Positions 4,365 to 30,634 of a DNA stretch of 32,000 nt are shown one piece after another. Numbering within the stretch: position 1 is the stretch's first letter; every line of letters begins with the position of its first letter. The notes below the pieces were generated by a model that saw only the letters and a program-made list of their open reading frames with translations, searched no databases and had not been told where the DNA came from. This DNA is from Crocosphaera subtropica ATCC 51142. Lineage in GTDB: Bacteria; Cyanobacteriota; Cyanobacteriia; Cyanobacteriales; Microcystaceae. The position numbers and the translations under genes were made by a program. Where the stretch lies: NCBI RefSeq assembly GCF_000017845.1, contig NC_010546.1:600001-632000 (forward strand). The letters run 5' to 3'.

Positions 4365-6203
4365 ATGATAGAAGCTTTAAGTCAAACAATTTGGCTAGTT
4401 CCTTTATACGCACTAATGGGGGGCATACTTGCAATACCCTGGTCCCCTGGAATTATTCGGGAAACCGGTCCGAGGCCATCAGGTTATGTCAATATCTTGA
4501 TGACTCTCATTGCCTTGATACATAGTTTAGTAACTTTAATAGAAACTTGGGGGAAACCTGCCAGTTATTTATCCTTTTCTTGGCTTCATGCTGCTGATTT
4601 AAACATCACTTTTGATATCGAAATTTCAACCATTACCCTTTCGGCATTAGTCTTAATTACTGCACTTAATTTATTAGCACAAATTTATGCCATTGGTTAC
4701 ATGGAAATGGACTGGGGATGGGCGAGATTTTACTCTTTGCTGGCTCTTTTTGAAGCAGGGATGTGTACTCTAGTTTTATGTAATTCCCTATTTTTCAGTT
4801 ATGTTGTCCTAGAAATTTTAACGTTAGGGACTTATCTATTGATTGGGTTATGGTTCAATCAATCTTTAGTGGTAACTGGTGCTAGAGATGCCTTTTTAAC
4901 CAAGCGGGTTGGGGACTTAATTCTACTCATGGGGGTAGTTGCTTTGTTACCTTTAGCCGGAACTTGGAATTATAACGAGTTGGCTATATGGGCGCAAACT
5001 GCTACCATAAGCCCGACTACAGCGACATTACTCTGTTTAGCCTTAATAGCCGGACCTTTAGCCAAATGCGCTCAATTTCCCTTGCATTTATGGTTAGATG
5101 AGGCCATGGAAGGGCCAATGCCGGCGACTATATTACGGAATACCGTTGTTGTCTCTACTGGTGCTTGGGTATTGATTAAATTACAACCAGTGTTAGCCTT
5201 ATCTGGCATCGCTTCTAACTTTATGATTTGCGTAGGGGCAGTAACGGCTATTGGTGCTAGTTTAATTGCCATTGCTCAAATTGATATTAAGCGATCGCTG
5301 TCCTATTCGGTGAGTGCATACATGGGTTTGGTCTTCATTGCCGTGGGAACCCAACAGGATACAGTGGCGTTAAAATTATTGTTGACTTATGCGATCGCCA
5401 TGTCGTTATTGGTGATGAGTGTGGGAGGTGTCGTATTAAACACCATTACCCAAGATTTAACCCAATACGGTGGTTTATGGTCCCGTCGTCCCCTTTCTGG
5501 CATCTGTTTCTTAGTTGGAGCAGCTTCACTGGTGGCGTTTCCGCCGTTGGGCTGTTTTTGGACATTGACAGAGATGGCCGATAACCTATGGTTGAGTTAT
5601 CCTCAGTTAGTGGTGGTGATGCTGTTGGTAAATGGGTTAACAGCCTTTAGTCTTACCCGTGAGTTTAGCCTGATTTTTGGCGGAAAAATCAAACAAATGA
5701 CGGTGCGATCGCCAGAAGGGTTATGGGCGTTAGTGTTGCCCATGATGGTAACAATGGGGTTTGCGCTGCACGTTCCCATTTTATTGTATCAATGGCAGTT
5801 ATTACCGATTTGGCAAGCATTAAATGTGACCGTCGCCGGATCATTAACCCTTACCAGTTTAATCGGTGCCGGAACCGCAGCTTATCTTTATCTCAATGAT
5901 GATATTTCTAAACCCATTCAGTTACCATCGAAAGCCTTACAAGACTTTTTTGCTTACGATCTGTACACCGAGAAATTTTATCGCACCACCATTGTTTTTG
6001 TTGTGGGTTTAGTGTCTCAAGTTATCTATTGGTTTGATCGTTATTTAGTAGATGGAGTGATTAACTTAGTAGGGTTAGCCACCATCTTCGGTGGCGAAAC
6101 CTTAAAGTATAATGCTTCGGGTCAAACGCAATTCTACTTTCTGTCAATTTTTCTAGGAGTTATTCTCTTTGTTGGCATGATTTTTTCCAATTTCATTATT
6201 TAA
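4365..6203 (+). CDS. ndhF3: NDH-1 subunit F3 (CO2-uptake NDH-1MS complex)
   Basis: 612-aa polytopic NuoL/NdhF antiporter-like protein. It is assigned to F3 by the operon context ndhF-ndhD-cupA and a size close to the known NdhF3 (~615 aa). Confidence 0.85.
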   Translation: MIEALSQTIWLVPLYALMGGILAIPWSPGIIRETGPRPSGYVNILMTLIALIHSLVTLIETWGKPASYLSFSWLHAADLNITFDIEISTITLSALVLITALNLLAQIYAIGYMEMDWGWARFYSLLALFEAGMCTLVLCNSLFFSYVVLEILTLGTYLLIGLWFNQSLVVTGARDAFLTKRVGDLILLMGVVALLPLAGTWNYNELAIWAQTATISPTTATLLCLALIAGPLAKCAQFPLHLWLDEAMEGPMPATILRNTVVVSTGAWVLIKLQPVLALSGIASNFMICVGAVTAIGASLIAIAQIDIKRSLSYSVSAYMGLVFIAVGTQQDTVALKLLLTYAIAMSLLVMSVGGVVLNTITQDLTQYGGLWSRRPLSGICFLVGAASLVAFPPLGCFWTLTEMADNLWLSYPQLVVVMLLVNGLTAFSLTREFSLIFGGKIKQMTVRSPEGLWALVLPMMVTMGFALHVPILLYQWQLLPIWQALNVTVAGSLTLTSLIGAGTAAYLYLNDDISKPIQLPSKALQDFFAYDLYTEKFYRTTIVFVVGLVSQVIYWFDRYLVDGVINLVGLATIFGGETLKYNASGQTQFYFLSIFLGVILFVGMIFSNFII

Positions 6204-6242
6204 TTATCTGAAATTTAGATCATCATTGAATTAGGAGAAAAA

Positions 6243-7745
6243 ATGCTGAGTTTTTTACTTTGGTTCCCCATATTAGGGTCAATTATTATCGGGTTAGTGC
6301 CAGGAAAACTAGAGTCTTCTCGCTTGCGTCAAATTACTGCAATTTTAGCTTTCATTATTTTTGGGGCTACGGTTTGGTTATTAACACAATTTGATTTGAG
6401 TGATCCAAGCTGGCAATTTTCTGAATATTTACCCTGGTCTGATTTTATTGGTTTAAGCTACAGTTTAGGAGTTGATGGTTTATCTTTGCCTCTCATTGCT
6501 TTAAATAGTCTCTTGACAATTATTGCAATTTATAGTATTGGTGAAAATGTAGAAAGACCCCGTTTATACTATGCTTTGACTCTGTTAATTAATGCAGGAA
6601 TTACCGGGGCATTAGCAGCACAAAACCTCTTATTATTTGTGATTTTTTATGAACTGGAATTAATTCCTTTCTATTTAATGATTGCTATTTGGGGAGGGGA
6701 AAAAAGAGGCTATGCGTCTACTAAATTTTTACTCTATACTGCTGTTTCTGGACTGTTAGTTTTAGCAGCATTTTTAGGCATTGGTTTTCTCAACGGTGCC
6801 AGCAGTTTCGACTACGACATTATCACCACAGAAGGGTTAGCATTAAACACCAAACTGATACTATTAACCGTTCTTTTAATTGGGTTTGGTATCAAAATTC
6901 CCTTAGTTCCTTTGCATACATGGCTCCCTGATGCGTATACAGAAGCCTCACCAGCCGTTACCATCTTATTAGGAGGAATTTTAGCAAAATTAGGAACTTA
7001 TGGCTTAATTCGCTTTGGTTTGCAACTATTTCCTGATGCTTGGGCCATTGTTGCCCCAGGATTGGCGATCATAGGAACCGTGAGTGTGTTGTACGGGGCT
7101 TTAAGTGCGATCGCTCAAAAAGATATTAAACGCATGGTCGCCTACAGTTCCATTGGTCACATGGGTTATATTTTAGTAGCAGCGGCCGCAGGGACTCAAT
7201 TAAGCACCCTTGGCGCAGTAGCCCAAATGATCAGTCATGGCTTAATTTTAGCCCTCTTGTTCCATTTAGTGGGCATTGTCGAGCGGAAAGTAGGGACCCG
7301 TGACTTAGATGTACTCAACGGGTTAATGAACCCCATACGGGGTTTACCTCTCACCAGTGCGTTGTTAATCACTGCAGGGATGGCCAGTGCCGGAATTCCT
7401 GGTTTAGTGGGCTTTGCTGCTGAATTTATCGTATTTCAGGGCAGTTTTGCCACATTTCCCATTCCGACCTTGCTCTGTATTGTTGCTTCTGGATTAACCG
7501 CCGTTTATTTTGTTATTCTGTTGAATCGTACTTGTTTCGGGAAATTAGACAACGAAAAGGCTTATTATCCCCCTGTTTTACCATCAGAAACTGTTCCTGC
7601 TCTGGTTCTCACCCTTATTATTCTAGTTCTCGGTGTACAACCTAACTGGTTACTCAAATGGATTGAACCGACAACCGATTTATTTGTCGTTAAAGTTCAC
7701 CCAATAGAACAAGTTGCAGTGAACAGTACAACCATAAGACCGTAA
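6243..7745 (+). CDS. ndhD3: NDH-1 subunit D3 (CO2-uptake NDH-1MS complex)
   Basis: 500-aa NuoM/NdhD-like membrane protein (LVPLHTWLPDAYTEASPAVTILLGGILAKLGTYG). AGGAG lies 7 nt before the ATG. It sits between ndhF3 and cupA. Confidence 0.85.
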   Translation: MLSFLLWFPILGSIIIGLVPGKLESSRLRQITAILAFIIFGATVWLLTQFDLSDPSWQFSEYLPWSDFIGLSYSLGVDGLSLPLIALNSLLTIIAIYSIGENVERPRLYYALTLLINAGITGALAAQNLLLFVIFYELELIPFYLMIAIWGGEKRGYASTKFLLYTAVSGLLVLAAFLGIGFLNGASSFDYDIITTEGLALNTKLILLTVLLIGFGIKIPLVPLHTWLPDAYTEASPAVTILLGGILAKLGTYGLIRFGLQLFPDAWAIVAPGLAIIGTVSVLYGALSAIAQKDIKRMVAYSSIGHMGYILVAAAAGTQLSTLGAVAQMISHGLILALLFHLVGIVERKVGTRDLDVLNGLMNPIRGLPLTSALLITAGMASAGIPGLVGFAAEFIVFQGSFATFPIPTLLCIVASGLTAVYFVILLNRTCFGKLDNEKAYYPPVLPSETVPALVLTLIILVLGVQPNWLLKWIEPTTDLFVVKVHPIEQVAVNSTTIRP

Positions 7746-15608: not shown

Positions 15609-18600
15609 ATGTCACGCATTGTTGTTATTACTGGGTTTGAATCATTTAATCTTGACTTGTATCGACAAGCTGCACAGTTAGCACAGTCACGGTGTGAAGG
15701 GTTAGATATACAGATATTTAGCGATCGCAGTCTTTCTCAAGAACCAGAGATTATTGAGAATCCCCTAAAGGATGCAGATGTATTTTTTGCTAGTTTAATC
15801 TTTGATTATGACCAAGTGATTTGGTTAAAAGAAAGAGTAGAAAACATCCCCATACGATTAGTTTTCGAGTCAGCTTTAGAATTAATGAGTTTGACTCGCT
15901 TAGGAAAATTTGTTATTGGGGAAAAACCCAAAGGAATGCCCAAACCAATCAAATTTATTTTAAGTAAATTTTCCAGTGGTAGAGAAGAAGATAAGCTTGC
16001 TGGTTATTTAAGTTTCTTGAAAACAGGACCGAAATTATTAAAGTTTATTCCAGCCAAAAAAGTCCAAGATTTACGCAACTGGTTAATCATTTATGGTTAT
16101 TGGAATGCAGGGGGAACGGAAAACTTTGCTGCGATGTGTTGGACAATAGCAGAGAAATATTTAGACATCAAAGTAGGAGATATTCCCGAACCCATTGAAA
16201 CCCCGAATATGGGTTTACTTCATCCTGACTATGATGGTTATTTTACCTCTCCTCGTGACTATTTAAACTGGCATCAACAAGAAAAATCTTTAGAGAATTC
16301 TCTCGTTGCTATCCTTTTGTATCGTAAGCACGTTATTACGAAACAGCCCTATATTCCCCAGTTAATTCGTTTCTTTGAACAACAAGGGTTAACCCCTGTT
16401 CCCATTTTTATCAACGGTGTTGAAGGTCATGTCATTGTCAGAGATTGGTTAACTACTACTTATGAAACCCAACAACGAAACTTAGGGAATATAGAAATTC
16501 GTTCTTTAGTAAAAGATGCCCTTGAAGTCGATGCTATTGTCTCTACCATCGGCTTTCCTTTGGTTGGGGGTCCTGCTGGTTCGATGGAAGCAGGGCGACA
16601 AGTTGAAGTAGCAAAACGCATTTTAACCGCTAAAAATATACCTTATATTGTTGCTGCACCTTTATTAATTCAAGATATTTATTCTTGGACAAGACAAGGT
16701 ATAGGAGGATTACAAAGTGTAGTCTTATATTCTCTTCCTGAATTAGATGGTGCTATTGACACTGTACCTTTAGGAGGTTTGGTGGGTAATGACATTTATA
16801 TTATTCCTGAGCGAGTAAAACGGTTAACTGGAAGACTCAAAAAATGGATCAATTTACGCAAAACTGAAACTAAAGATCGGAAAATTGCCATTATTTTGTA
16901 TGGGTTTCCTCCTGGTTACGGTGCAACAGGAACCGCCGCTTTATTAAACGTTCCCCGTAGCTTACTCAACTTATTACAAGAATTAGAAAAACAAGGTTAT
17001 AACATAGGAGAATTACCCGAAGATGGGGAGATTATTATTAATCAAGTGAAAGCAGCCGATGAAGCTATTGTTAACCCTAATGATGATAGCAATAGCACAA
17101 CAACGGTTAATGTCAGAAAGTTAGAAGAATGGTTAGGCTATTTGTTAACCACTCGTATTGAAAAGCAGTGGAAATCATTAACAGAAACAGGAATTAAGAC
17201 TTATGGAGATGAATATCAAATCGGAGGAATTCAATTAGGAAATGTCTGGATAGGGGTACAACCCCCATTAGGTATTTCTGGTGATCCCATGCGGTTAATG
17301 TTTGAAAAAGATTTAACCCCTCACCCTCAATATGCAGCTTTTTATAAGTGGTTACAACATAATTTTTGTGCCGATGCTATCATTCATTTTGGTATGCACG
17401 GAACCGTTGAATGGTTGCCAGGTTCCCCATTAGGAAATACGGGCTATTCTTGGTCAGATATTTTGTTAGGAGATATCCCTAATTTATACATCTATGCTGC
17501 GAATAATCCCTCAGAATCTATATTAGCTAAACGTCGGGGTTATGGTGTGTTAATTTCTCATAATGTACCCCCTTATGGACGAGCAGGGTTATATAAAGAA
17601 TTGATGGCGTTACGAGAACTAATTGCTGAATATCGAGAAGATCCCAACAAAAATGAGATTTTGAGAGAGGGGATTATTCAAAAGATTGTTGACTCTGGTT
17701 TAGCCGCTGATTGTAAGTTTGAAGAAGGTAAAAAATTGGGTATTGACTTTACAGTAGAAAATGCAAAATTATTTAGTAAAAATGCTCTAAATGAGTATTT
17801 TTTCAAGGTTTATGAATACTTACAAATCGTTGAACAAAGACTATTTTCTTCGGGTTTACATACCCTGGGTGAAACTCCTAAGCAAGAACAATTAGACTCT
17901 TATCTAGAGGCTTATTTTGGAGAGAAATTAACCGATAGAGAAAGAAAAGCTATTACCTCTGAATCGCCAGAATTACAATATATATTAGAGTCAGCAAATG
18001 GTAAAAGTGAAACCATACAAGAAGCAATTTATATTAGAGATTTACTTAAACAAACCTCCGAAGAATTAACTAACCTATTACGAGGTTTAAATGGTGAATA
18101 CATACCCCCTGCACCGGGAGGAGACTTACTCAGAGATGGGACAGGAGTGTTACCTACAGGACGAAATATACACGCCTTAGATCCTTATAGAATGCCCTCT
18201 CCTGCTGCTTATGAGAGAGGCCGAGAAATTGCCAAGAAAACCATACAACAACATTTAGATGAACAGGGGAATTATCCCGAAACCATTGCCGTTTTATTGT
18301 GGGGTTTAGACGCAATTAAAACTAAGGGTGAATCGTTAGGTATTTTATTAGAATTAGTGGGTGCAGAACCCATAAAAGAAGGGACTGGTCGTATTGTTAG
18401 ATATGAGTTGAAACCCTTGGAACAATTAGAACATCCGAGAATTGATATTTTAGCCAATTTATCAGGCATTTTTCGTGATACATTCGTCAATATTATTGAA
18501 CTGTTAGATGATTTATTCCAACGGGCAGCAGAAGCAGAAGAAGACCCCAAAAAGAACTTTATTCGTAAACATTATTTACAATTAAAAGAGCAAGGTATAG

Positions 18601-19331
18601 AAAACGCTTCAGCGCGACTCTTTTCTAACCCTGCTGGTGATTTTGGTTCCTTAGTTAACGATCAAGTAGTGGACGGAAACTGGGAATCTGGCGACGAATT
18701 AGCGAATACTTGGGAAAAAAGAAATTCCTTTAGTTATGGACGCAAAGATAAAGGGCAAGCAAGACCCGAAATTTTAAATCAACTATTAAAAACTAGCGAA
18801 AGAATTGTTCAAGAAATTGACTCAGTCGAATACGGTTTAACCGATATTCAAGAATATTATGGTAATACAGGAGGATTAAAATTAGCAGCCGAAAAACAAA
18901 GCGGTAAAAAAGTAACTGCAAGTTTCGTTGAAAGCTTTTCTAATGATACCAACCCCCGAAAACTAGAAGACTTATTAAGGTTAGAATACCGTACAAAATT
19001 ACTCAATCCGAAATGGGCCGAAGCAATGGTTAACCAGGGTTCAGGGGGTGCTTATGAAGTGTCCCAACGGATGACAGCTTTGATAGGTTGGGGAGGAACA
19101 ACAGATTTTAAAGATAATTGGGTGTATGATCAAGCAGCACAAACCTATGCTTTAGACCCAGAAATGGCTGAAAAATTACGGAAAGCGAACCCTGAAGCAT
19201 TTCGTAATATTGTGGGAAGAATGATCGAAGCAAACGGTAGAGGTTTCTGGGATGCGGATGAGGAAACTTTAGAAAAATTACGTAGTTTATATGATTTAAC
19301 CGAGGAAGAGTTAGAAGGAGTTACTAATTAA
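15609..19331 (+). CDS. Magnesium-chelatase H-subunit family protein (ChlH/BchH-like, short 1240-aa form; CobN/Mg-chelatase superfamily)
   Basis: ChlH-type blocks are present: HFGMHGTVEWLPG, NLYIYAANNPSESILAKRRGYG, LPTGRNIHALDP, YPETIAVLLWGLDAIKTKGESLG and NPKWAEAM. The IHALDP and ANNPSE..AKRR motifs favour ChlH/BchH over CobN. It is about 90 aa shorter than the canonical cyanobacterial ChlH (~1330 aa). Confidence 0.85.
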   Translation: MSRIVVITGFESFNLDLYRQAAQLAQSRCEGLDIQIFSDRSLSQEPEIIENPLKDADVFFASLIFDYDQVIWLKERVENIPIRLVFESALELMSLTRLGKFVIGEKPKGMPKPIKFILSKFSSGREEDKLAGYLSFLKTGPKLLKFIPAKKVQDLRNWLIIYGYWNAGGTENFAAMCWTIAEKYLDIKVGDIPEPIETPNMGLLHPDYDGYFTSPRDYLNWHQQEKSLENSLVAILLYRKHVITKQPYIPQLIRFFEQQGLTPVPIFINGVEGHVIVRDWLTTTYETQQRNLGNIEIRSLVKDALEVDAIVSTIGFPLVGGPAGSMEAGRQVEVAKRILTAKNIPYIVAAPLLIQDIYSWTRQGIGGLQSVVLYSLPELDGAIDTVPLGGLVGNDIYIIPERVKRLTGRLKKWINLRKTETKDRKIAIILYGFPPGYGATGTAALLNVPRSLLNLLQELEKQGYNIGELPEDGEIIINQVKAADEAIVNPNDDSNSTTTVNVRKLEEWLGYLLTTRIEKQWKSLTETGIKTYGDEYQIGGIQLGNVWIGVQPPLGISGDPMRLMFEKDLTPHPQYAAFYKWLQHNFCADAIIHFGMHGTVEWLPGSPLGNTGYSWSDILLGDIPNLYIYAANNPSESILAKRRGYGVLISHNVPPYGRAGLYKELMALRELIAEYREDPNKNEILREGIIQKIVDSGLAADCKFEEGKKLGIDFTVENAKLFSKNALNEYFFKVYEYLQIVEQRLFSSGLHTLGETPKQEQLDSYLEAYFGEKLTDRERKAITSESPELQYILESANGKSETIQEAIYIRDLLKQTSEELTNLLRGLNGEYIPPAPGGDLLRDGTGVLPTGRNIHALDPYRMPSPAAYERGREIAKKTIQQHLDEQGNYPETIAVLLWGLDAIKTKGESLGILLELVGAEPIKEGTGRIVRYELKPLEQLEHPRIDILANLSGIFRDTFVNIIELLDDLFQRAAEAEEDPKKNFIRKHYLQLKEQGIENASARLFSNPAGDFGSLVNDQVVDGNWESGDELANTWEKRNSFSYGRKDKGQARPEILNQLLKTSERIVQEIDSVEYGLTDIQEYYGNTGGLKLAAEKQSGKKVTASFVESFSNDTNPRKLEDLLRLEYRTKLLNPKWAEAMVNQGSGGAYEVSQRMTALIGWGGTTDFKDNWVYDQAAQTYALDPEMAEKLRKANPEAFRNIVGRMIEANGRGFWDADEETLEKLRSLYDLTEEELEGVTN

Positions 19332-19373
19332 ATAATCCACAAGTTTATGATTTTAAAGATAAACTCGATAATT

Positions 19374-19811
19374 CTATAATTCCTGAGTAATAATGGAACG
19401 AATATCTTGAACAAACTGTGAAGGAGTTTGAATTATAATACCTGTTTTTTGGGCAACTTCTTGAGTGAAATCCTTAGTATTTAAACTAAGTAATCTATCG
19501 GCTTTAACTAATAAAGCAGCAGCAAGAATAGGTGCATCTTTAGGTTCAATAATATCAATGTAAGCTAAAAACTCTTCTAGAGAAGGATTAGGTAAAATTT
19601 CAAGATTTGTGTTATCAATAATCTCATTAAAAACAGGAATAGCTTTAGGGAGTTTTTTATTAATATTTCTCTGACATTCTTCTAACACTTGCTCTGAAAT
19701 TAATAACTTAAATAAACCGATTTCTGCCATCGTTAATACAACTCGACTCGCACCAGTTGAAGATGCAGACCCTGCAATTAAGATACTAGAATCAGCAAAA
19801 ATTAATTTCAT
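19374..19811 (-). CDS. PIN-domain toxin (VapC-like, PIN_3-type)
   Basis: 145 aa. Acidic PIN positions are plausible at FADSS (D7), LEEC, and PKDAPILAAA...LNTKDF. The start overlaps the antitoxin stop (TAATG). Confidence 0.75.
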   Translation of the reverse strand: MKLIFADSSILIAGSASSTGASRVVLTMAEIGLFKLLISEQVLEECQRNINKKLPKAIPVFNEIIDNTNLEILPNPSLEEFLAYIDIIEPKDAPILAAALLVKADRLLSLNTKDFTQEVAQKTGIIIQTPSQFVQDIRSIITQEL

Positions 19812-20077
19812 TATTCATATTTTTCTTGATATATCATCTTTCTTTCATGTTCTAATCCTTCCAATAACTCCTCTAAAGTGACATCTTCTTCTTCTCGAAT
19901 GGTAGTGATTTTTTCAATTAATTGAGGAACTTTAGGATTTTTTGATGTTAATATAATTAAACCTTCAATTTCTAAAAAATTTAAGTAATCCCCTTTACGA
20001 AGATTAAGTGCATCTTGAATCACTTTAGGAACCATTATGGTTCCATCTTGGTGTAAACGAACAGTAAATGATTTCAT
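19811..20077 (-). CDS. AbrB/MazE/SpoVT-family antitoxin
   Basis: 88 aa with an N-terminal swapped-hairpin pattern (VRLHQDGTIMVPKVIQDALNLRKGDYLNF). AGGA lies 8 nt upstream of the ATG. The 1-nt stop/start overlap with the PIN gene gives the classic antitoxin-toxin order. Confidence 0.75.
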   Translation of the reverse strand: MKSFTVRLHQDGTIMVPKVIQDALNLRKGDYLNFLEIEGLIILTSKNPKVPQLIEKITTIREEEDVTLEELLEGLEHERKMIYQEKYE

Positions 20078-20128
20078 ATATTGTTTTCCTCATTGGAAAG
20101 TAACTACAATCCTACCAAATTTTTAATG

Positions 20129-20407
20129 TTATTCAGTCTCATCTTCAGACAAATCATTAATTCCTGTAATAGCATCAAGAATGACCTCTAATTTACCCTG
20201 AAGTCGATTAAATTGATGTTCCATGTGATCTAAACGCCCATCAACCCGATCAATACGCTTATCAACTTGATCGAAGCGTTCATCTATATGTTCCTCTAAT
20301 GCAGAAAATGCTTCACTAATACGTCCTTCTGATTCAATATCTAATTCTAGAGTTTTAAAGCGAACCCTGAAGCATTTCGTAATATTTTCGGAAGATGATC
20401 GAAGCAA
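20129..20407 (-). CDS. Coiled-coil repeat ORF (92 codons, TTG start only), possibly 5'-truncated or chimeric
   Basis: ISEAFSALEEHIDERFDQVDKRIDRVDGRLDHMEHQFNRLQGKLEV parallels SLEEMFSRLEQKIDKLENKLDTKIDTLENKLD of the ORF at 24934. There is no ATG near the 5' end. Codons 1-17 (20357-20407) are antisense to the chlH-like remnant. Confidence 0.4.
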   Translation of the reverse strand: MLRSSSENITKCFRVRFKTLELDIESEGRISEAFSALEEHIDERFDQVDKRIDRVDGRLDHMEHQFNRLQGKLEVILDAITGINDLSEDETE

Positions 20408-20514
20408 ACGGAAGAGGTTTCTGGAATGCTGATGAGGAAACCTTAGAAAAATTACGAAATTTATATGAGTTAACCGATGGAGAGTTAGAAGGAGTTAGTA
20501 ACGTGGTAAATTAG
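20357..20514 (+). pseudogene. Displaced, frameshifted duplicate of the last 49 codons of the chlH-like gene
   Basis: 20357-20501 aligns with 19182-19327. The first 30 nt are identical. After that I count 13 substitutions and a 1-nt deletion (GGAAGAATG versus GGAAG-ATG) over ~117 nt. It reads KANPEAFRNIFGR* and then, shifted, MIEANGRGFWNADEETLEKLRNLYELTDGELEGVSNVVN*. Confidence 0.85.
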
Positions 20515-20602
20515 AAATGGCTCCTCAAAAATCCAAAACCCTAACGTTGATGGTAGAGGAGAATTGTCACATTAAACTATTTTGTATTAAAGGGAATTAA
20601 AA

Positions 20603-21355
20603 ATGCTGCCAAAACTCTCTACAGGTGACTTTAATGTAGCCTATGAAAAAGTCGTGCTTAATAACGATTTTTTTGAAAAAGATAACTATTATATACAACA
20701 AAAACCTCGCTATTTTAATTCTTTAAAGCAAGTTATAACAATTCCTCTGTCTAATTCAAGTAAAGTTCTCGAAATAGGAGGAGGACAGATTGTTTTATTA
20801 TTAAATGAAATGTATGGAATTCAAGGTGCAGTTGCCGATGTAAATGAAAAATATCAAAATAGTTTAGCTCAGTTTGGAATAAATTTTAGATCTTGTGATT
20901 TATTGCATGACGACTTACCAGAAAGAGATACTTATGATTTGGTTGTTTTGTGTGAAGTTATTGAACATATGCCCGTTCCTCCCTATATTATTTTAGAAAA
21001 AATCAAACAATGGATTAAACCAGGAGGATGGATTTTTTTGACAACCCCCAATCTTTACCGACTGAGAAATTTAGTAAGGTTAGCTTTAGGAATGAGGGTT
21101 TTTGATACTTTTTTTATTCCTGAAAAAGGCCAAGGAATAGGTCATCCCATTGAGTATAGTAAAGAGCAGTTTCAATGGCAACTTGAAAAAGCAGGATTTC
21201 ACTCAGTCCAGATAGACTTACAGCAATTAGATAATTCTGGTGCAAGCTTAGGAACACAAATAGGCAGAATGCTTTTAAGTCCTTTATTGTTACGGCCACT
21301 TTGGCGTGATAAATTAGTGGCGATCGCTCAAAAGCCGTTATTAAAGACTGTGTAA
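20603..21355 (+). CDS. Class I SAM-dependent methyltransferase
   Basis: Motif I VLEIGGGQ, post-II DLVVLCEVIEHMP and IKPGGWIFLTTPN. The specific substrate is unknown. Confidence 0.75.
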   Translation: MLPKLSTGDFNVAYEKVVLNNDFFEKDNYYIQQKPRYFNSLKQVITIPLSNSSKVLEIGGGQIVLLLNEMYGIQGAVADVNEKYQNSLAQFGINFRSCDLLHDDLPERDTYDLVVLCEVIEHMPVPPYIILEKIKQWIKPGGWIFLTTPNLYRLRNLVRLALGMRVFDTFFIPEKGQGIGHPIEYSKEQFQWQLEKAGFHSVQIDLQQLDNSGASLGTQIGRMLLSPLLLRPLWRDKLVAIAQKPLLKTV

Positions 21356-21386: not shown

Positions 21387-22655
21387 ATGAACAACAAAAG
21401 AAAGAAAGCTCTACTTATCATCGAACAATGTAATCCTGACTGGTCATCAGTTCCATTAGTAGGTTATAACTTCTACTATGAAATTAGTCAATTATGTGAC
21501 GTTACATTAGTTACTCACATCAGAAATAAAGCAGCCCTACAAAAACATCAAGAACACCAGGATATTATATATATTGATGAAAGTCAATTTAGTAAGAATT
21601 ATCATAAATTTATAGCTGCTTTAACATCAATTGGACGTAAAAATTGGCCACTATATATTGCTTTGAGTTATCCTATTTATGAAGAATTTAATAAACAAGT
21701 TTACCAGAAATTCAAAGATAAAGTTTTAGGGAAAGAGTATGACATTGTTCATGTTATCACCCCGATGATGCCCAGATATCCTGCTAAAATTATCCGAGCT
21801 TGTGTAAATACTCCTTTCATATTAGGACCGGTTAATGGAGGCGTTCCTTTTCCTCCTGGATTTCAAAAAGTCGCTAGACAAGAGTTTGCTTATTTTAACT
21901 TTTTACGAGCAATAGGACGGAAATTAATTCCAGGTTATGTAGAAACCTATCAGAAAGCAGACAAAATCTTAGCAGGTTCAACCTATACCTTAAATCTTAT
22001 TAAAGATTTATTCAAAATCCCAAAAGAACGTCTTGAGCTTTTTTATGAAAATGGAATTTCCAAGAACTTTTTTCATCAAAAAAAAACTAACACAAATAAT
22101 TCTGTAATTAATTTACTTTTTGTGGGTCGTTTAGTACCGTATAAAGGGGCTGATATGCTAATTGATGCTATTCATAATTTATCAGATGATCTTAGAAATA
22201 AAATAAAATTGACAATTGTGGGAGATGGTTCAGAGAAAGTTAAATTAGAAAATCAAGTCAAAAATTTAGGACTAGAAAAAGTTGTTTCTTTTACAGGTTG
22301 GATAAAACAAGAAGAAACAGTTGAATATTATAAGCAAGCTGATATCTTTTGTTTTCCTTCTATTCGAGAATTTGGGGGAGCAGTCGTCTTGGAAGCGATG
22401 GCTTGTGGTTTGCCTTGTATTGTTGCTAATAATGGGGGAATCGGAGAATATGTAACGCCAGAAACAGGCTTTAGCATAGAACCCAAATCGAGAGAATATT
22501 TAGTTAAAGAGCTAACTGCAAAAATACAAACCTTAGTAGAAAATAAAGACTTGAGAGAAAAAATGTCAGCTAAATGTTACCAAAGAGCTAGAGAATTTGA
22601 ATGGAGTAAAAAAGCTAAAAAAATTGTTGAGCTTTATCAGCAATTATTAAAATAA
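21387..22655 (+). CDS. Glycosyltransferase, GT-B fold, family 4-like
   Basis: The C-terminal domain carries LLFVGRLVPYKG and the E-x7-E motif (EFGGAVVLEAMACGLPCIV). Confidence 0.85.
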   Translation: MNNKRKKALLIIEQCNPDWSSVPLVGYNFYYEISQLCDVTLVTHIRNKAALQKHQEHQDIIYIDESQFSKNYHKFIAALTSIGRKNWPLYIALSYPIYEEFNKQVYQKFKDKVLGKEYDIVHVITPMMPRYPAKIIRACVNTPFILGPVNGGVPFPPGFQKVARQEFAYFNFLRAIGRKLIPGYVETYQKADKILAGSTYTLNLIKDLFKIPKERLELFYENGISKNFFHQKKTNTNNSVINLLFVGRLVPYKGADMLIDAIHNLSDDLRNKIKLTIVGDGSEKVKLENQVKNLGLEKVVSFTGWIKQEETVEYYKQADIFCFPSIREFGGAVVLEAMACGLPCIVANNGGIGEYVTPETGFSIEPKSREYLVKELTAKIQTLVENKDLREKMSAKCYQRAREFEWSKKAKKIVELYQQLLK

Positions 22656-22698: not shown

Positions 22699-23298
22699 AT
22701 GATTACAACTCTATCCACTGAAAATCTACCTTTGGTTTTGCAACTTTCACCTGCGATCGCCATCACAGACGAACAATTCTTCGCGTTATGTCAATTAAAC
22801 CGAGATTATTGTCTTGAACGCAACGCCAAAGGAGAATTGCTCATTATGTCTCCTACAGATTTAGAAACGGGAAATCGCAATGCTAAACTAACACAGCAAC
22901 TTGCTAACTGGACAGACGAAGACGTTTCAGGAATTGGTTTTGATTCGTCCACAGGGTTTAAATTACCGAATGGGGCAAATCGTTCTCCTGATGCAGCTTG
23001 GATGACGTTGGAAAAGTGGAATTCCCTCACAGAAGACCAAAAAATTAGATTTGCACCGGTTTGCCCTGATTTTGTGGTGGAAATACGTTCCCCTAGCGAT
23101 CAACTGCAATCCCTTCAAGATAAACTACAAGAATATATCGATAACGGCGTAAAATTAGGCTGGTTAATTGATCGCAAAAATCGCCTAGTTTATATTTATC
23201 GACCCCAAACAGAAGTAGAATGTTTAGAGAATCCAGACACTGTAAATGGTGATCCTATTTTGTCGGGTTTTCAGTTACAAATGGATAAAATTTGGTAA
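22699..23298 (+). CDS. Uma2-family (DUF820) PD-(D/E)xK endonuclease-like protein
   Basis: SPDAAW...PDFVVEIRSPSD...GVKLGWLIDRKNRLVYIY is the typical Uma2 pattern that is expanded in cyanobacteria. Confidence 0.8.
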   Translation: MITTLSTENLPLVLQLSPAIAITDEQFFALCQLNRDYCLERNAKGELLIMSPTDLETGNRNAKLTQQLANWTDEDVSGIGFDSSTGFKLPNGANRSPDAAWMTLEKWNSLTEDQKIRFAPVCPDFVVEIRSPSDQLQSLQDKLQEYIDNGVKLGWLIDRKNRLVYIYRPQTEVECLENPDTVNGDPILSGFQLQMDKIW

Positions 23299-23313: not shown

Positions 23314-24390
23314 ATGTCATTATCTAAAGAACAAAAAAGTATTTTAATCACTGGTGGTGCCGGTTTTATAGGTTCCAACTTTGTGCATCATTGGTCTAAT
23401 CATTATCCTGATGATAACGTTATTGTTTTAGATGCGTTAACCTATGCAGGAAATCGCCAAAATTTAGTAGATTTAGAAGATAGACAAAACTTTAAATTTA
23501 TTCAAGGAGATATTTGCGATCGCCCTTTAATTGATAAACTTTTAAAAGAAGAAAATATCACCACACTAGCACATTTTGCGGCTGAATCCCATGTTGATCG
23601 TTCTATTCTCGGGCCTGATGCGTTTATTCAAACCAATGTCATTGGAACGTTTACCTTATTAGAGAGTTTTCGTCACTATTGGAATGAGCAAGGAAAGCCA
23701 GAAGATTATCGTTTTCTTCATGTCTCTACCGATGAAGTTTATGGCAGTTTAGAAGCAGATGATCCAGCTTTTTCAGAAACAACGCCTTATGCTCCTAATA
23801 GTCCCTATTCTGCCTCAAAAGCAGGGAGTGATCACCTAGCAAGAGCTTATTTTCATACTTATAATGTACCCACAATTATCACCAATTGTTCTAATAATTA
23901 TGGGCCTTATCATTTTCCTGAAAAACTAATCCCGTTGATGTGTATTAATATTTTATTAGGTAAACCCTTACCTGTATATGGAGATGGCCAAAATATTAGA
24001 GATTGGTTATATGTAGGGGATCATTGTTCAGCATTAGAAACCGTTATTAATAAAGGAAAACCAGGAGAAACTTATAATATCGGGGGCAATAATGAAGTTA
24101 AAAATATTGACTTAGTCACCCTGTTATGTAATCTAATGGATGAGTTAGCCCCAGACTTACCGGTTAAACCGGCAAAAGAGTTAATTACCTTTGTTAAAGA
24201 TCGGCCCGGCCACGATCGCCGTTATGCTATTGATGCGACAAAAATTAAAACAGAATTAGGTTGGACACCACAAGAAACAGTAGAAAATGGCTTAAGAAAA
24301 ACCATTGAATGGTATTTGAATAATCAAGATTGGTGGCAACATTTATTGTCGAAAGAGTATCAAGATTATTATCAAAAAGTGTATGGATAA
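23314..24390 (+). CDS. rfbB: dTDP-glucose 4,6-dehydratase
   Basis: [10 protein letters not shown] Rossmann motif, catalytic [11 protein letters not shown], and [17 protein letters not shown] and [12 protein letters not shown] blocks. Confidence 0.92.
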
Positions 24391-29932: not shown

Positions 29933-30634
29933 ATGTCCTTAACTGCCGAACAATTAGCAGCGTTAATGCCTGATGCAACTCAAGTTGAAAGTGATGAACC
30001 GGAAATGGAAAGTAGTTTACATTATTTTCAATTAGCCTTATTAGTTTCCTGTTTAGAATGGCTTTGGCGTGAGCAAAATGATTTTTTTATTGGAGCCAAT
30101 CTCACCATTTATTTTAATCGTCAACAACTCAAAAATAAAGACTTTCGTGGCCCTGATTTTTTCTTAGTTAAACAAACCGAAAAACGTCCCCGAAAATCCT
30201 GGGTAACTTGGGAGGAAGGGGGAAAATATCCCGATTTAATTATTGAGTTACTGTCAGAATCAACTGAAAATGTGGATAAAACGATTAAAAAAGACCTTTA
30301 TCAAAATCGCTTTCGTACTCCAGACTATTTTTGGTTTTCACCGGATACTTTAGAATTTTCAGGGTTTCGTTTAGTTCAAGGAAAGTATGAAGAAATTGAT
30401 CCTAATGAGTTCGGTTGGTTATGGAGTGAAAGCTTAGGATTATACTTAGGAATTTATGAACAACAACTGCGCTATTTTACCCTAGAAGGTCAACTGGTTC
30501 CCACCCCCGAAGAAGACGCACAACAACAACGAAAACAGGTTGAACAAGTACAACAACAGGCTAACCAGCAACAACGACGGGCTGAACAGTTAGCTGCTCA
30601 GTTAAGAGCATTGGGAATAGAGCCAGAAGCTTAA
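29933..30634 (+). CDS. Uma2-family (DUF820) endonuclease-like protein with a Q-rich coiled-coil C-terminal extension
   Basis: GPDFFLV...YPDLIIELLSEST...DYFWF core, then TPEEDAQQQRKQVEQVQQQANQQQRRAEQLAAQLRALGIEPEA. Confidence 0.8.
   Translation: MSLTAEQLAALMPDATQVESDEPEMESSLHYFQLALLVSCLEWLWREQNDFFIGANLTIYFNRQQLKNKDFRGPDFFLVKQTEKRPRKSWVTWEEGGKYPDLIIELLSESTENVDKTIKKDLYQNRFRTPDYFWFSPDTLEFSGFRLVQGKYEEIDPNEFGWLWSESLGLYLGIYEQQLRYFTLEGQLVPTPEEDAQQQRKQVEQVQQQANQQQRRAEQLAAQLRALGIEPEA

Follow-up and report, generated by a model that had tools for sequence, protein, structure and literature searches.

A duplicated chelatase gene end in Crocosphaera subtropica is probably a recombination scar at the edge of a flexible islet

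Introduction

Some integrative elements target the 3' ends of protein genes and bring a replacement end with them, as e14 does in icd of E. coli. A locus of Crocosphaera subtropica ATCC 51142, cce_0611 to cce_0614, resembles the sites of such elements. A direct repeat of a gene 3' end flanks the DNA between the copies, one copy completes the gene while the other is an orphan, and the identity between them is highest at the promoter-proximal edge. The locus lies in a stretch of 32,000 nucleotides (the window), and an earlier note made from the letters of the window alone had proposed that it might be a small element with an att-like core. Elements of the e14 type, however, have an integrase and one fixed core, whereas here there is no recombinase, the edges are variable and cut a gene, and the supposed cargo is resident without any duplication.

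Type II VapBC-like modules, which combine a PIN toxin with an antitoxin of the AbrB/MazE fold, are stabilizers of chromosomal segments. Two of the genes between the repeat copies are similar to these modules in that they form a two-gene operon with overlapping stop and start codons, encode small proteins under purifying selection, and are scattered over unrelated cyanobacterial contexts. They differ in that the predicted pair looks like long-resident, sometimes decaying islet genes and not like the passenger of a recent insertion.

Kirchberger et al. (2017, PMC5361080) provide a precedent for orphan 3' ends that are left by homology-facilitated illegitimate recombination and by "sequential displacement". 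With reference to Jackson et al. 2009, they name the former process as the source of C-terminal or "sequential" displacement at Rhs, CDI, and T6SS effector loci. As at those loci, an intact gene is followed here by one or more orphan 3' fragments that are each still joined to their own former downstream genes, the conserved 5' part serves as the homologous anchor while the other end is illegitimate and no integrase takes part, and arrays can stack, here as in the loci L020 and L040. The displaced tips of the effector genes are variable toxin domains with cognate immunity genes, and their retention is selected. The chelatase tail described here is instead conserved, the stub is a decaying by-product, and the haplotypes differ in their downstream genes rather than in the tail.

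In an experimental system, a circular molecule that carried a partial gene end duplicated 109-950 bp of that end by a single crossover in 56 of 60 E. coli recombinants (Amarir-Bouhram et al. 2011, PMC3240628). There too, gene-end duplications flank the inserted DNA and host recombination alone suffices, but the molecule was a plasmid in E. coli, whereas a circular intermediate at the Crocosphaera locus is only hypothetical.

Results

Anatomy of the duplicated gene end

The features of the locus are collected in Table 1. The protein encoded by cce_0611 matches ACB49962.1 of C. subtropica ATCC 51142 exactly, scores 1567.7 bits against TIGR02025 BchH (cutoff 829) and 1094 bits against PF02514, and has a dN/dS of about 0.04 versus relatives. 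This chelatase gene is the conserved left border of a variable islet. Its 3' end occurs a second time, and the repeat coordinates and difference counts given in the earlier note are correct. Copy A aligns with 20357-20502/3 of copy B; the first 30 nt are identical, and the remainder differs by 13 substitutions and by a 1-nt deletion (20394/20395) that frameshifts copy B. Copy B also extends 12 nt beyond the position of the copy A stop codon (...AGT AAC GTG GTA AAT TAG, with the stop at 20512-20514), and this B-type extension is GTG GTA AAT TAG. The private changes of copy B are mostly non-synonymous. The A-type stop position is found in 14 of the 15 live Crocosphaera chelatase tails examined; the exception is L010, which differs at the extreme end.

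Three ORFs separate the copies, namely PIN, AbrB/MazE, and coiled-coil reading frames (the last at 20129-20407), and as in the earlier note all lie on the minus strand, antisense to the chelatase gene. The note would have given up its reading if the duplication were absent from independent assemblies or reads. The entire duplicated structure is present with 100% identity in a Logan assembly of SRR26036489 (L001, 9.5 kb), which rules out an assembly artefact as its source.

Table 1. Features of the chelatase locus and its islet, in positions of the window
Feature	Position	Strand	Basis
BchH-type magnesium chelatase H-subunit paralog, cce_0611, 1240 aa, intact	15609-19331	+	profiles, exact match
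Copy A, live last 49 codons and TAA stop of the chelatase gene (...ELEGVTN-stop)	19182-19331	+	
PIN-domain protein cce_0612, 145 aa, VapC-like predicted toxin	19374-19811	-	PF13470, NCBIfam
AbrB/MazE/SpoVT-type predicted antitoxin cce_0613, 88 aa	19811-20077	-	PF04014, TIGR01439
Coiled-coil gene remnant, codons 25-99, 5'-truncated	20129-20356	-	alignment with full-length orthologs
Illegitimate junction TTTTAA/AGCG	20353-20362	not assigned (.)	alignment with L012, L004, L085, and copy A
Copy B, orphan chelatase tail, pseudogene fragment	20357-20514	+	
30-nt block	20357-20386	+	identical to 19182-19211
B-type native spacer, chelatase stop to methyltransferase	20515-20602	+	L086 939-1024
Methyltransferase	20603-21355	+	Pfam; L086 87% nt
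GT4 glycosyltransferase	21387-22655	+	Pfam; L086 83% nt
Uma2, where the variable part of the islet ends	22699-23298		
Dehydratase/epimerase, where the variable part of the islet ends	23314-24390		

The sharp edge of copy B truncates a conserved gene

Full-length orthologs of the coiled-coil gene (99-112 aa, beginning MSEQEQNKRINQLRRQLANAVERIKTLELD...) occur in L012, L004, and L085, and the family has 168 members across Chroococcales. This conservation led us to reject the coiled-coil ORF as cargo of the toxin-antitoxin pair. The window gene lacks codons 1-24 and has the antisense stub in their place, so that the first 17 codons of the annotated ORF cce_0614, which begins with a TTG codon, are antisense copy B sequence. 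Its 92-aa product is identical to P0073/ACB49965.1, and the same chimeric ORF is also recorded for strain ATCC 51472. We conclude that cce_0614 is a chimeric remnant and not a real gene.

Because the stub replaces the first 24 codons of the coiled-coil gene, the left edge of copy B is an illegitimate junction at AA(A/T)GCG. The two source sequences are ...TTTTAATGCGTTC in the coiled-coil gene and ...CGGAAAGCGAAC in the chelatase gene, and the microhomology at the joint consists of the AA and GCG common to coiled-coil TTTTAATGCG and chelatase GGAAAGCG. The earlier note was right that this edge is razor sharp, but its reading as an att site fails because the edge truncates a conserved gene and has microhomology at the joint. 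Illegitimate joints have affected this gene elsewhere too: the BG0011 copy breaks off near codon 41, where it is fused to Uma2, and L007 retains only codons 1-29. In L012/L087 the coiled-coil gene alone follows the chelatase gene, with no duplication. The window remnant is 96% identical to L012, the window spacer is L008-like, and sliding-window identity along the chelatase gene gives no clear crossover breakpoint. The region is a mosaic of small patches.

Copy B matches a live alternative haplotype

The metagenome contig L086 has a live chelatase gene with the B-type end GTGGTAGATTAG (...EGVTNVVD-stop), directly followed by a spacer, a methyltransferase gene, and a glycosyltransferase gene that are collinear with the copy B side of the window. 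The window spacer after copy B is 69% identical to that of L086, compared with 48% for an unrelated spacer. The same B-type end is common to copy B, the stubs of C. chwakensis (L014, 8373-8477) and L085, and the live L086 gene. Since L086 carries the B-type arrangement in live form, copy B can be recognized as the orphan tail of a chelatase-to-methyltransferase haplotype. The earlier note had predicted that copy B is an orphaned native tail and that an empty site, with the chelatase gene leading directly to the methyltransferase gene, should have a tail like copy B; L086 bears out both points. Both L085 and L086 were recovered by a protein-seeded scan of metagenomes. A degenerate exact pattern for the B-type end (GAAGGASTTASTAAYGTGGTARATTAGAAA) had no match in metagenomes because these two differ from it at a few bases. 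A further arrangement occurs in L007/L090, where Uma2 and the epimerase directly follow the chelatase gene.

The PIN and AbrB genes look like a resident pair

The PIN protein matches PF13470 PIN_3 (E = 2.5e-5, 25.5 bits, cutoff 27) and the NCBIfam RSP_2648-family PIN profile (E = 2e-12), and its partner matches PF04014 (E = 5.7e-5) and TIGR01439 (E = 1.4e-6); the PIN and AbrB domain scores are both slightly under the curated cutoffs. The antitoxin stop codon and the PIN start codon overlap by 1 nt at 19811, and the genes form one operon. They fit a type II VapBC-like pair, with toxicity and neutralization as predicted functions. Ratios of dN/dS are 0.15-0.25 for PIN and 0.12-0.42 for AbrB (six and ten pairwise comparisons, respectively), by which measure both genes are maintained by selection. 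Homologs of the PIN protein with 58-67% identity are found across cyanobacteria in unrelated contexts, always with a small upstream gene adjacent.

The pair lies 3' of the chelatase gene in at least seven Crocosphaera lineages (L004/L084, L006, L008, L011/L088, L014, BG0011, and the window), where it is the sole copy at that site and mostly comes without a duplication. It follows the chelatase gene, with or without the coiled-coil gene and with no repeat, in L004/L084, L008, L011/L088, and BG0011. Decay is lineage specific: 33 nt of the PIN gene are left in L004, it is interrupted in L008, and it is deleted in L012, L085, and L007. Occurrence at the same site in seven lineages together with lineage-specific decay fits a resident module and not a recent insertion. 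Between the window and L014, dS is 0.08-0.12 for PIN and AbrB versus 0.405 for the chelatase gene.

The 30-nt block is not an att core

The 30-mer that begins both copies occurs exactly twice in the window and never in 100 shuffles. With 14 differences over 147 positions, the probability that the first 30 positions are free of differences is 0.035, and the probability of a run of at least 30 anywhere is 0.48. The earlier note had proposed that an att-like core should be better conserved than the rest of the tail. The mean pairwise divergence among orthologs is 0.107 for the block and 0.106 for the remainder, so the block has no such advantage. Its identity is restricted to the two window copies, as 18 other tails differ from it at 1-5 sites, and the G of its GCG is private to the window pair. 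The block is not an att core: it is unconserved in homologs, the edges vary among relatives, and the edge cuts a gene. Among all ORFs of at least 80 aa in the 32-kb window, Pfam and NCBIfam scans gave no match to an integrase, transposase, or resolvase, in agreement with the remark in the note that the proposed element carries no integrase. The window also has no tRNA or tmRNA and no match to Rfam families, and no terminator or unusual promoter signal was found at 19100-20700.

Stubs with different edges recur

Three species have a B-type stub on the right side of the coiled-coil gene, and its edge differs in each. L085, which has no toxin-antitoxin pair, retains a full-length coiled-coil gene, with a gap of about 70 nt to a stub whose start is near chelatase position -52. 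In the window, where 24 codons are gone, the stub starts at tail position +1. C. chwakensis (L014) retains only a 3' remnant of the coiled-coil gene, which alignment puts at about 17 codons, and has a stub that begins at +55. C. watsonii has an independent stub with its start at about -88. Counted back from the end of the stop codon, the starts lie at 150 nt in the window, about 202 in L085, 230-238 in L006, 97 in L014, 123 and 156 in L020, 103 in L025, 105 in L040, 111 in L042, and 161 in L050; stubs in other orders begin 97-161 nt before the stop.

Downstream of the L006 stub lie its own spacer and then PIN and AbrB remnants. C. watsonii WH8501 has a tandem unit of 1143 nt in which the second PIN and AbrB genes are decaying. 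We had considered this second unit to be foreign (86.8% versus 93%), but at finer resolution the two units proved to be sister-like, apart from a 60-nt spacer patch. Leading identical runs between copies reach 57 nt in L042 and 24 nt in L014, and stubs are stacked in L020 and L040. At the stub junction of L020, an Abi_2 gene is cut so that only profile positions 114-184 of 184 match and 1-113 are missing. Chelatase-end stubs beside Abi, PIN/HTH, and GmrSD genes recur in other cyanobacteria, and stubs were found at 8 of 158 chelatase loci compared with 0 of 467 other ORFs, in addition to 5' stubs in Waterburya. Stubs elsewhere adjoin non-addictive genes, which counts against the idea, taken up below, that toxin-antitoxin genes favor retention.

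Discussion

At the edge of a flexible islet, combined homologous and illegitimate recombination probably left copy B as a scar, which a deletion would subsequently have shortened. The fallback offered in the earlier note, a decayed islet or capture of the toxin-antitoxin pair by homologous recombination, is close to these data, and its 1.2-kb att element is not. The DNA from the chelatase gene to Uma2/epimerase is a small islet with alternative arrangements among Crocosphaera. In the A-type arrangement, the chelatase gene (...GVTN-stop) is followed by PIN-AbrB and the coiled-coil gene on the opposite strand; in the B-type, the chelatase gene (...NVVD/N-stop) leads to the spacer, methyltransferase, and glycosyltransferase. 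The window is probably a splice of the two, and either side could be resident or incoming. Foreign DNA would have been taken up by transformation or another route. One end of the splice would have formed by homologous recombination in a shared flank, in the chelatase body or on the glycosyltransferase/Uma2 side, and the other by illegitimate joining beside the coiled-coil gene. With one homologous and one illegitimate end, the chelatase tail of the second haplotype would be carried along or left as a stub.

The shared partners and shared 3' end of the stub suggest that it had a single origin in three lineages, in which case the splice would be older than the C. subtropica, C. chwakensis, and L085 lineages or have been shared among them. 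L085 lies outside the group of the window and L014 on the chelatase tree, so a single origin requires lateral spread or ancestral polymorphism. About 200 nt at the microhomology AA(A/T)GCG would later have been deleted in the C. subtropica line, with loss of the 24 coiled-coil codons, the upstream spacer, and at least the first 52 nt of the stub, and this deletion would have produced the sharp edge of today. The frameshift and non-synonymous changes would represent subsequent decay. The basic splice model does not predict the 30/30 identity with its private G. This identity most likely reflects either a later homologous exchange between the copies (a conversion or crossover patch) or chance (P of about 0.03). 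It is also plausible, as speculation, that a clean double-homologous replacement of the islet would delete the addictive pair and that rare scar-bearing recombinants that keep the pair would be favored.

An alternative that stays entirely within one genome at the start is possible but unlikely. Sister chromosomes would have exchanged DNA, unequally or illegitimately, at the AA(A/T)GCG present in the chelatase and coiled-coil genes, producing a 1175-nt tandem duplication of the tail, PIN, AbrB, and the 3' part of the coiled-coil gene. The second unit would later have been lost or replaced, and a B-type haplotype would have contributed the 3' end and methyltransferase side of the second tail through a crossover within it. 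The 1143-nt tandem unit of C. watsonii WH8501, with its decaying second PIN and AbrB genes and two sister-species-like units, is such a duplication, and if the crossover fell about 30 nt inside the second tail, this would explain why the first 30 nt equal copy A, whereas the remainder resembles copy A no more than it resembles other species. When a deep A/B split was tested with four taxa, 0 of 20 variable sites supported it, though the test is confounded by the more recent coalescence of PIN-AbrB and the stub relative to the chelatase gene. With 0 of 20 sites grouping A versus B copies, the tails would have been nearly identical when joined, and this lack of a deep split fits an intragenomic duplication equally well. 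However, at least two events are then needed for the window, and L085, with its stub from -52 upstream of an intact coiled-coil gene and no toxin-antitoxin pair, is unexplained unless it arose separately. Collinearity of the stub, spacer, and methyltransferase with a natural haplotype is more simply accounted for by a single splice.

Two further explanations place the crossover or the integration site within the 30-nt block itself. It is improbable that a fragment from the chelatase tail to the coiled-coil gene was circularized illegitimately and entered the tail of a B-type genome by one homologous crossover, as in the E. coli plasmid system, even though the block, which would be the sole one long enough for RecA, is the longest identical run between the copies (others are at most 17 nt) and B-type native downstream sequence follows copy B. 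Such an event predicts divergence on both sides of the crossover unless this fell at the very edge, it needs extra deletions for the different edges in L085 and L014, and the private G in both copies would require a donor and host of the same lineage, even though the other 117 nt are 12% divergent. Least credible is a small cassette of PIN-AbrB and the coiled-coil ORF that integrated site-specifically at a 30-nt att core in the chelatase 3' end, with copy A as the replacement tail, copy B as the displaced native one, and a recombinase acting in trans or since lost. The displaced tail that it predicts is present in L086, the 30-nt identity with its private base is unique to the window copies, the leading identical runs of L042 and L014 are similar, and the stub stacks of L020 and L040 resemble reused att sites. 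These likenesses are outweighed, as the model is already contradicted on four defining features. Its edge truncates a gene that is full length elsewhere, as the Abi_2 gene of L020 is likewise cut; the start of the same B-type stub varies from -52 to +1 to +55, with other positions in C. watsonii and other orders; its cargo is present without duplication in many relatives; and its core is unconserved among orthologs in a window that has no integrase, transposase, or tRNA.

A broader reading is that BchH-type chelatase ends are a preferred docking point in several cyanobacterial orders. Host recombination would suffice to insert integrase-less defense or addiction cassettes (PIN-AbrB, PIN-HTH, Abi, GmrSD) that bring a replacement gene end, often with HIP1 palindromes providing the joint, and the survival of recombinants would be biased by addictive cargo. 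We regard this as quite doubtful, but if it is true, then the stubs would be a readable stack of past acquisitions.

These results correct a tempting reading, as the window contains no miniature mobile toxin-antitoxin element with an att site. It would instead hold a clean trace, in a marine nitrogen-fixing cyanobacterium, of natural recombination that was homologous at one end and illegitimate at the other and took place at a flexible-islet border. The alternative haplotype is known from L086, and different species show three successive states of what may be one scar. If the recurrence of stubs at the chelatase gene holds genome-wide, then orphan gene ends could be used to date and order gene gain in cyanobacterial islets.

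The duplicated chelatase tail

Four proteins encoded at 15609-20407 match cce_0611, cce_0612, cce_0613 and cce_0614 of C. subtropica ATCC 51142 exactly. The first is a magnesium chelatase subunit H whose 3' end recurs downstream, and only a PIN gene, an AbrB/MazE gene and a coiled-coil ORF lie between the two copies, all antisense to the chelatase as an earlier note had described. The alignment of copy A with copy B (to 20502/3) spans 146-147 nt and agrees with that description: positions 1-30 are identical and are followed by 13 substitutions and a 1-nt deletion between 20394 and 20395. Copy B runs 12 nt beyond the copy-A stop position and ends at its own TAG (20512-20514). The duplication is real, because L001, a Logan assembly of an independent run, is 100% identical to the window over 9.5 kb and strain ATCC 51472 shares the chimeric ORF adjoining copy B. 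A direct repeat, GAAAAATTACG, occurs in the chelatase tail at 19170-19183 and 19272-19285, 102 nt apart.

The remaining window genes are ordinary chromosomal ones (sigma factor, NDH-1/ChpY CO2-uptake, phosphoglucomutase, PNPase, NDH-2, two Uma2, dehydratase/epimerase and DUF29). No integrase or transposase is found among the window's genes, and its 32 kb contain no tRNA and no match to an Rfam family. The first of the two Uma2-family (putative restriction endonuclease-like) genes forms the conserved boundary on the right side of the variable islet downstream of the chelatase, and it directly follows the chelatase in the related locus L007/L090.

The leading 30 nt had been read as an att-like core, but among orthologs this block shows no extra conservation over the rest of the tail (divergence 0.107 vs 0.106). 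Its identity is confined to the two window copies, with the 18 other tails differing at 1-5 sites, and the G of its GCG is private to this pair. In copy B the remaining 117 nt differ from copy A at 14 positions, from the nearest tails of other species at 11-13 and from the most distant at no more than 24, and they are no closer to copy A than to those tails. This pattern hints that gene conversion or a crossover between the repeats later left a patch here, or it may reflect chance; an identical run of at least 30 nt has P = 0.035 if it must lead the alignment and P = 0.48 if it may fall anywhere. No att core is needed to explain the block, and the other tests argue against such a core.

Chelatase copies, stubs and neighboring genes in the window and in related loci (L numbers)
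Feature	Location	Strand	Remarks
cce_0611, magnesium chelatase subunit H, ACB49962.1			1240 aa; BchH-type paralog (TIGR02025 1567.7 bits, PF02514 1094 bits)
Copy A	19182-19331		live chelatase 3' end
PIN	19374-19811	minus	between copies A and B
AbrB/MazE	19811-20077	minus	between copies A and B
cce_0614, 92-codon ORF	20129-20407	minus	between copies A and B, adjoining B
Copy B	20357-20514		stub
Uma2	22699-23298
Uma2	29933-30634
C. chwakensis stub	L014:8373-8477
Metagenome contig stub	L085:6143-6251		coiled-coil gene at 5733-6071
C. watsonii WH8501 tandem unit	L006:7262-8900		1143-nt unit; also in L089
Xenococcaceae MAG stubs	L020:6744-8570		two stacked; cargo, Abi_2 gene 5'-truncated exactly at its stub and PIN/HTH_17 pair
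Microcystaceae MAG stub	L025:5739-5834
Hyella patelloides stubs	L040:4938-5063 and 6201-6332		two stacked
Stub	L042:7998-8108
Stub	L050:9033-9179		cargo, GmrSD restriction enzyme
Waterburya orphan 5' ends	L053:2436-2637; L061:2547-2637; L072:2541-2627		small unknown ORFs between orphan and gene

A microhomology joint at the left edge

The ORF adjoining copy B is a member of a conserved coiled-coil family, whose proteins are small (96-112 aa) and which has 168 matches in Aphanothece, Synechocystis, Microcystis, Snowella, Prochloron, Xenococcaceae and Crocosphaera. Its full-length Crocosphaera orthologs (L012, L004 and L085) start with MSEQEQNKRINQLRRQLANAVERIKTLELDIE…, whereas homology in the window begins at …KTLELDIE, so that codons 1-24 are absent and copy B, read in antisense, supplies the annotated N-terminus. 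The joint reads TTTTAAAGCGAAC in the window, compared with TTTTAATGCGTTC in the coiled-coil gene and CGGAAAGCGAAC in the chelatase, and AA and GCG are common to both parents. Instead of the integration boundary that had been proposed, the sharp edge is the mark of an illegitimate joint, mediated by microhomology, that cuts into a gene.

Annotated as a 92-aa 't-SNARE coiled-coil' protein, cce_0614 is a chimera of 17 antisense stub codons and codons 25-99 of the coiled-coil gene; RefSeq also carries an 84-aa version. This gene is cut at other points in C. chwakensis CCY0110 (L014), C. watsonii WH8501 (L006), Cyanothece sp. BG0011 and L007, which makes it a recurrent casualty of rearrangements at this site. 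The cut in BG0011 lies near codon 41 and fuses the gene to Uma2.

A resident toxin-antitoxin pair and an empty-site haplotype

The comparison draws on 21 Crocosphaera-type loci and about 140 from other cyanobacteria, recovered in a scan of species-representative genomes and another of metagenomes; BG0011 (L163) was added through a PIN protein look-up. PIN-AbrB lies directly downstream of the chelatase in L004/L084, L006/L089, L008, L011/L088, L014 and BG0011. Its decay differs by lineage: L004 retains 33 nt of PIN, L008 has an interrupted PIN gene, and the pair is deleted in L012, L085 and L007 with different end points in each. Both genes are under purifying selection (dN/dS 0.12-0.42). These observations argue that the pair and the coiled-coil gene have long been resident at the site and are not a recent 1.2-kb insertion.

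The contig L086 supplies an empty site. Its live chelatase ends …LEGVTNVVD*, with GTGGTAGATTAG. Next come a spacer with 69% identity to 20515-20602 (48% for an unrelated spacer), a methyltransferase (87% nucleotide identity to the window) and a glycosyltransferase (83%). Copy B, its spacer and these two downstream genes are therefore collinear with a natural haplotype that is without the toxin-antitoxin pair. Crocosphaera that lack the pair and carry other downstream genes (L003, L005, L007, L009, L012 and L013) have the copy-A stop position; the L010 tail differs from it at the extreme end.

The C. chwakensis stub has the same peculiar end as copy B, GTGGTA(A/G)ATTAGAAA, and part of the next spacer. 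It begins at position +55 of the tail, counted from the first nucleotide of copy A, and beside it no more than the 3' part of the coiled-coil gene survives, some 17 codons by alignment. The metagenome contig L085 shares this end and spacer, but its coiled-coil gene is complete and is followed by ~70 nt of native upstream DNA and then by a stub starting near chelatase position -52. An internal 102-nt deletion in this stub removes exactly the interval that separates the paired GAAAAATTACG sequences, a classic case of slipped deletion at short repeats. Three edges with the same partners would most simply reflect a single older splice and then separate deletions across its joint, of which the window's edge would be one. 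Since L085 falls outside the sister pair formed by the window and L014 on the chelatase tree (97% bootstrap), the arrangement either moved between lineages or was sorted out of an ancient polymorphism.

Mosaicism of the islet

PIN and AbrB of the window differ from those of C. chwakensis (19374-20077 vs L014:7543-8246) by dS values of 0.12 and 0.08, against 0.405 for the chelatase, which indicates that the toxin-antitoxin allele was recently shared or swept; the stubs of the two species differ at 15/93 sites. The BG0011 PIN gene is 96% identical to that of the window but its AbrB gene only 83.5%, which indicates recombination inside the pair. In the window, the spacer between chelatase and PIN resembles that of L008, and the coiled-coil remnant shares 96% identity with L012. 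C. watsonii WH8501 carries an independent tandem unit that comprises the last ~238 nt of the chelatase, the spacer, PIN, AbrB and the coiled-coil 3' end. Its second unit is decaying (PIN down to 32 nt, AbrB to 72 nt) and has a spacer like that of the sister species L011, while the unit 1 spacer has a C. chwakensis-like patch. Together with the BG0011 joint, these affinities mark the islet as a hotspot, both for homologous exchange and for illegitimate events of small size.

Chelatase stubs in other cyanobacteria

Five cyanobacteria outside Crocosphaera likewise have orphan chelatase 3' ends downstream of the intact gene; the neighbors there, apart from the cargo in the table, are small unknown ORFs and a GT87-like membrane protein. 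Three Waterburya genomes have an orphan chelatase promoter region with the first ~40 codons, located ~1.1 kb upstream of where the intact gene starts; it corresponds, at the 5' end, to the tail stubs. When both ends of 467 other ORFs of at least 200 aa were searched in the same 160 loci, stubs were found for 8/158 chelatase genes and 0/467 other ORFs (Fisher p = 1.5e-5, with a rough and heterogeneous control). Several joints coincide with the cyanobacterial HIP1 palindrome GCGATCG(C) (L042:7998, L020:8564-8570, L053:2629-2637 and L061:2629-2637), which suggests that HIP1 can supply microhomology for illegitimate joints. None of the 17 HIP1 sites in the 32-kb window is at its own junction.

Origin of the duplication

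The best-supported account, and probably the correct one, is that the duplicated tail is a recombination scar. Two islet haplotypes would have been spliced through one homologous and one illegitimate joint, after which a microhomology deletion at the edge and decay of the stub would have followed. Such a splice would be compatible with either direction of transfer, and candidate routes are linear one-ended, Campbell-type, or tandem duplication with replacement. There are two published analogues. Homology-facilitated illegitimate recombination has left orphan 3' ends at T6SS and Rhs loci by 'sequential displacement' (PMC5361080), and in E. coli a circular molecule with part of a gene end, integrated by a single crossover, duplicated 109-950 bp of lacZ in 56/60 recombinants (PMC3240628). 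A variant in which the event was intragenomic is unlikely, and the Campbell variant is more doubtful still.

Least credible is integration of a PIN-AbrB mini-element at an att site in the chelatase 3' end. The displaced-tail component of this model stands, with copy B as the orphaned native tail that L086 confirms. Its att core and 1.2-kb element are not supported, because the edge cuts the coiled-coil gene at a microhomology joint, the same stub partners meet at three different edges (the window, C. chwakensis and L085), the 30-nt block is no better conserved than its surroundings, and the pair and the coiled-coil gene are long resident.

The feature is a fresh example of an already known sort of recombination scar and, taken alone, is modestly interesting; the repeated appearance of such scars at the chelatase gene is the more interesting lead.
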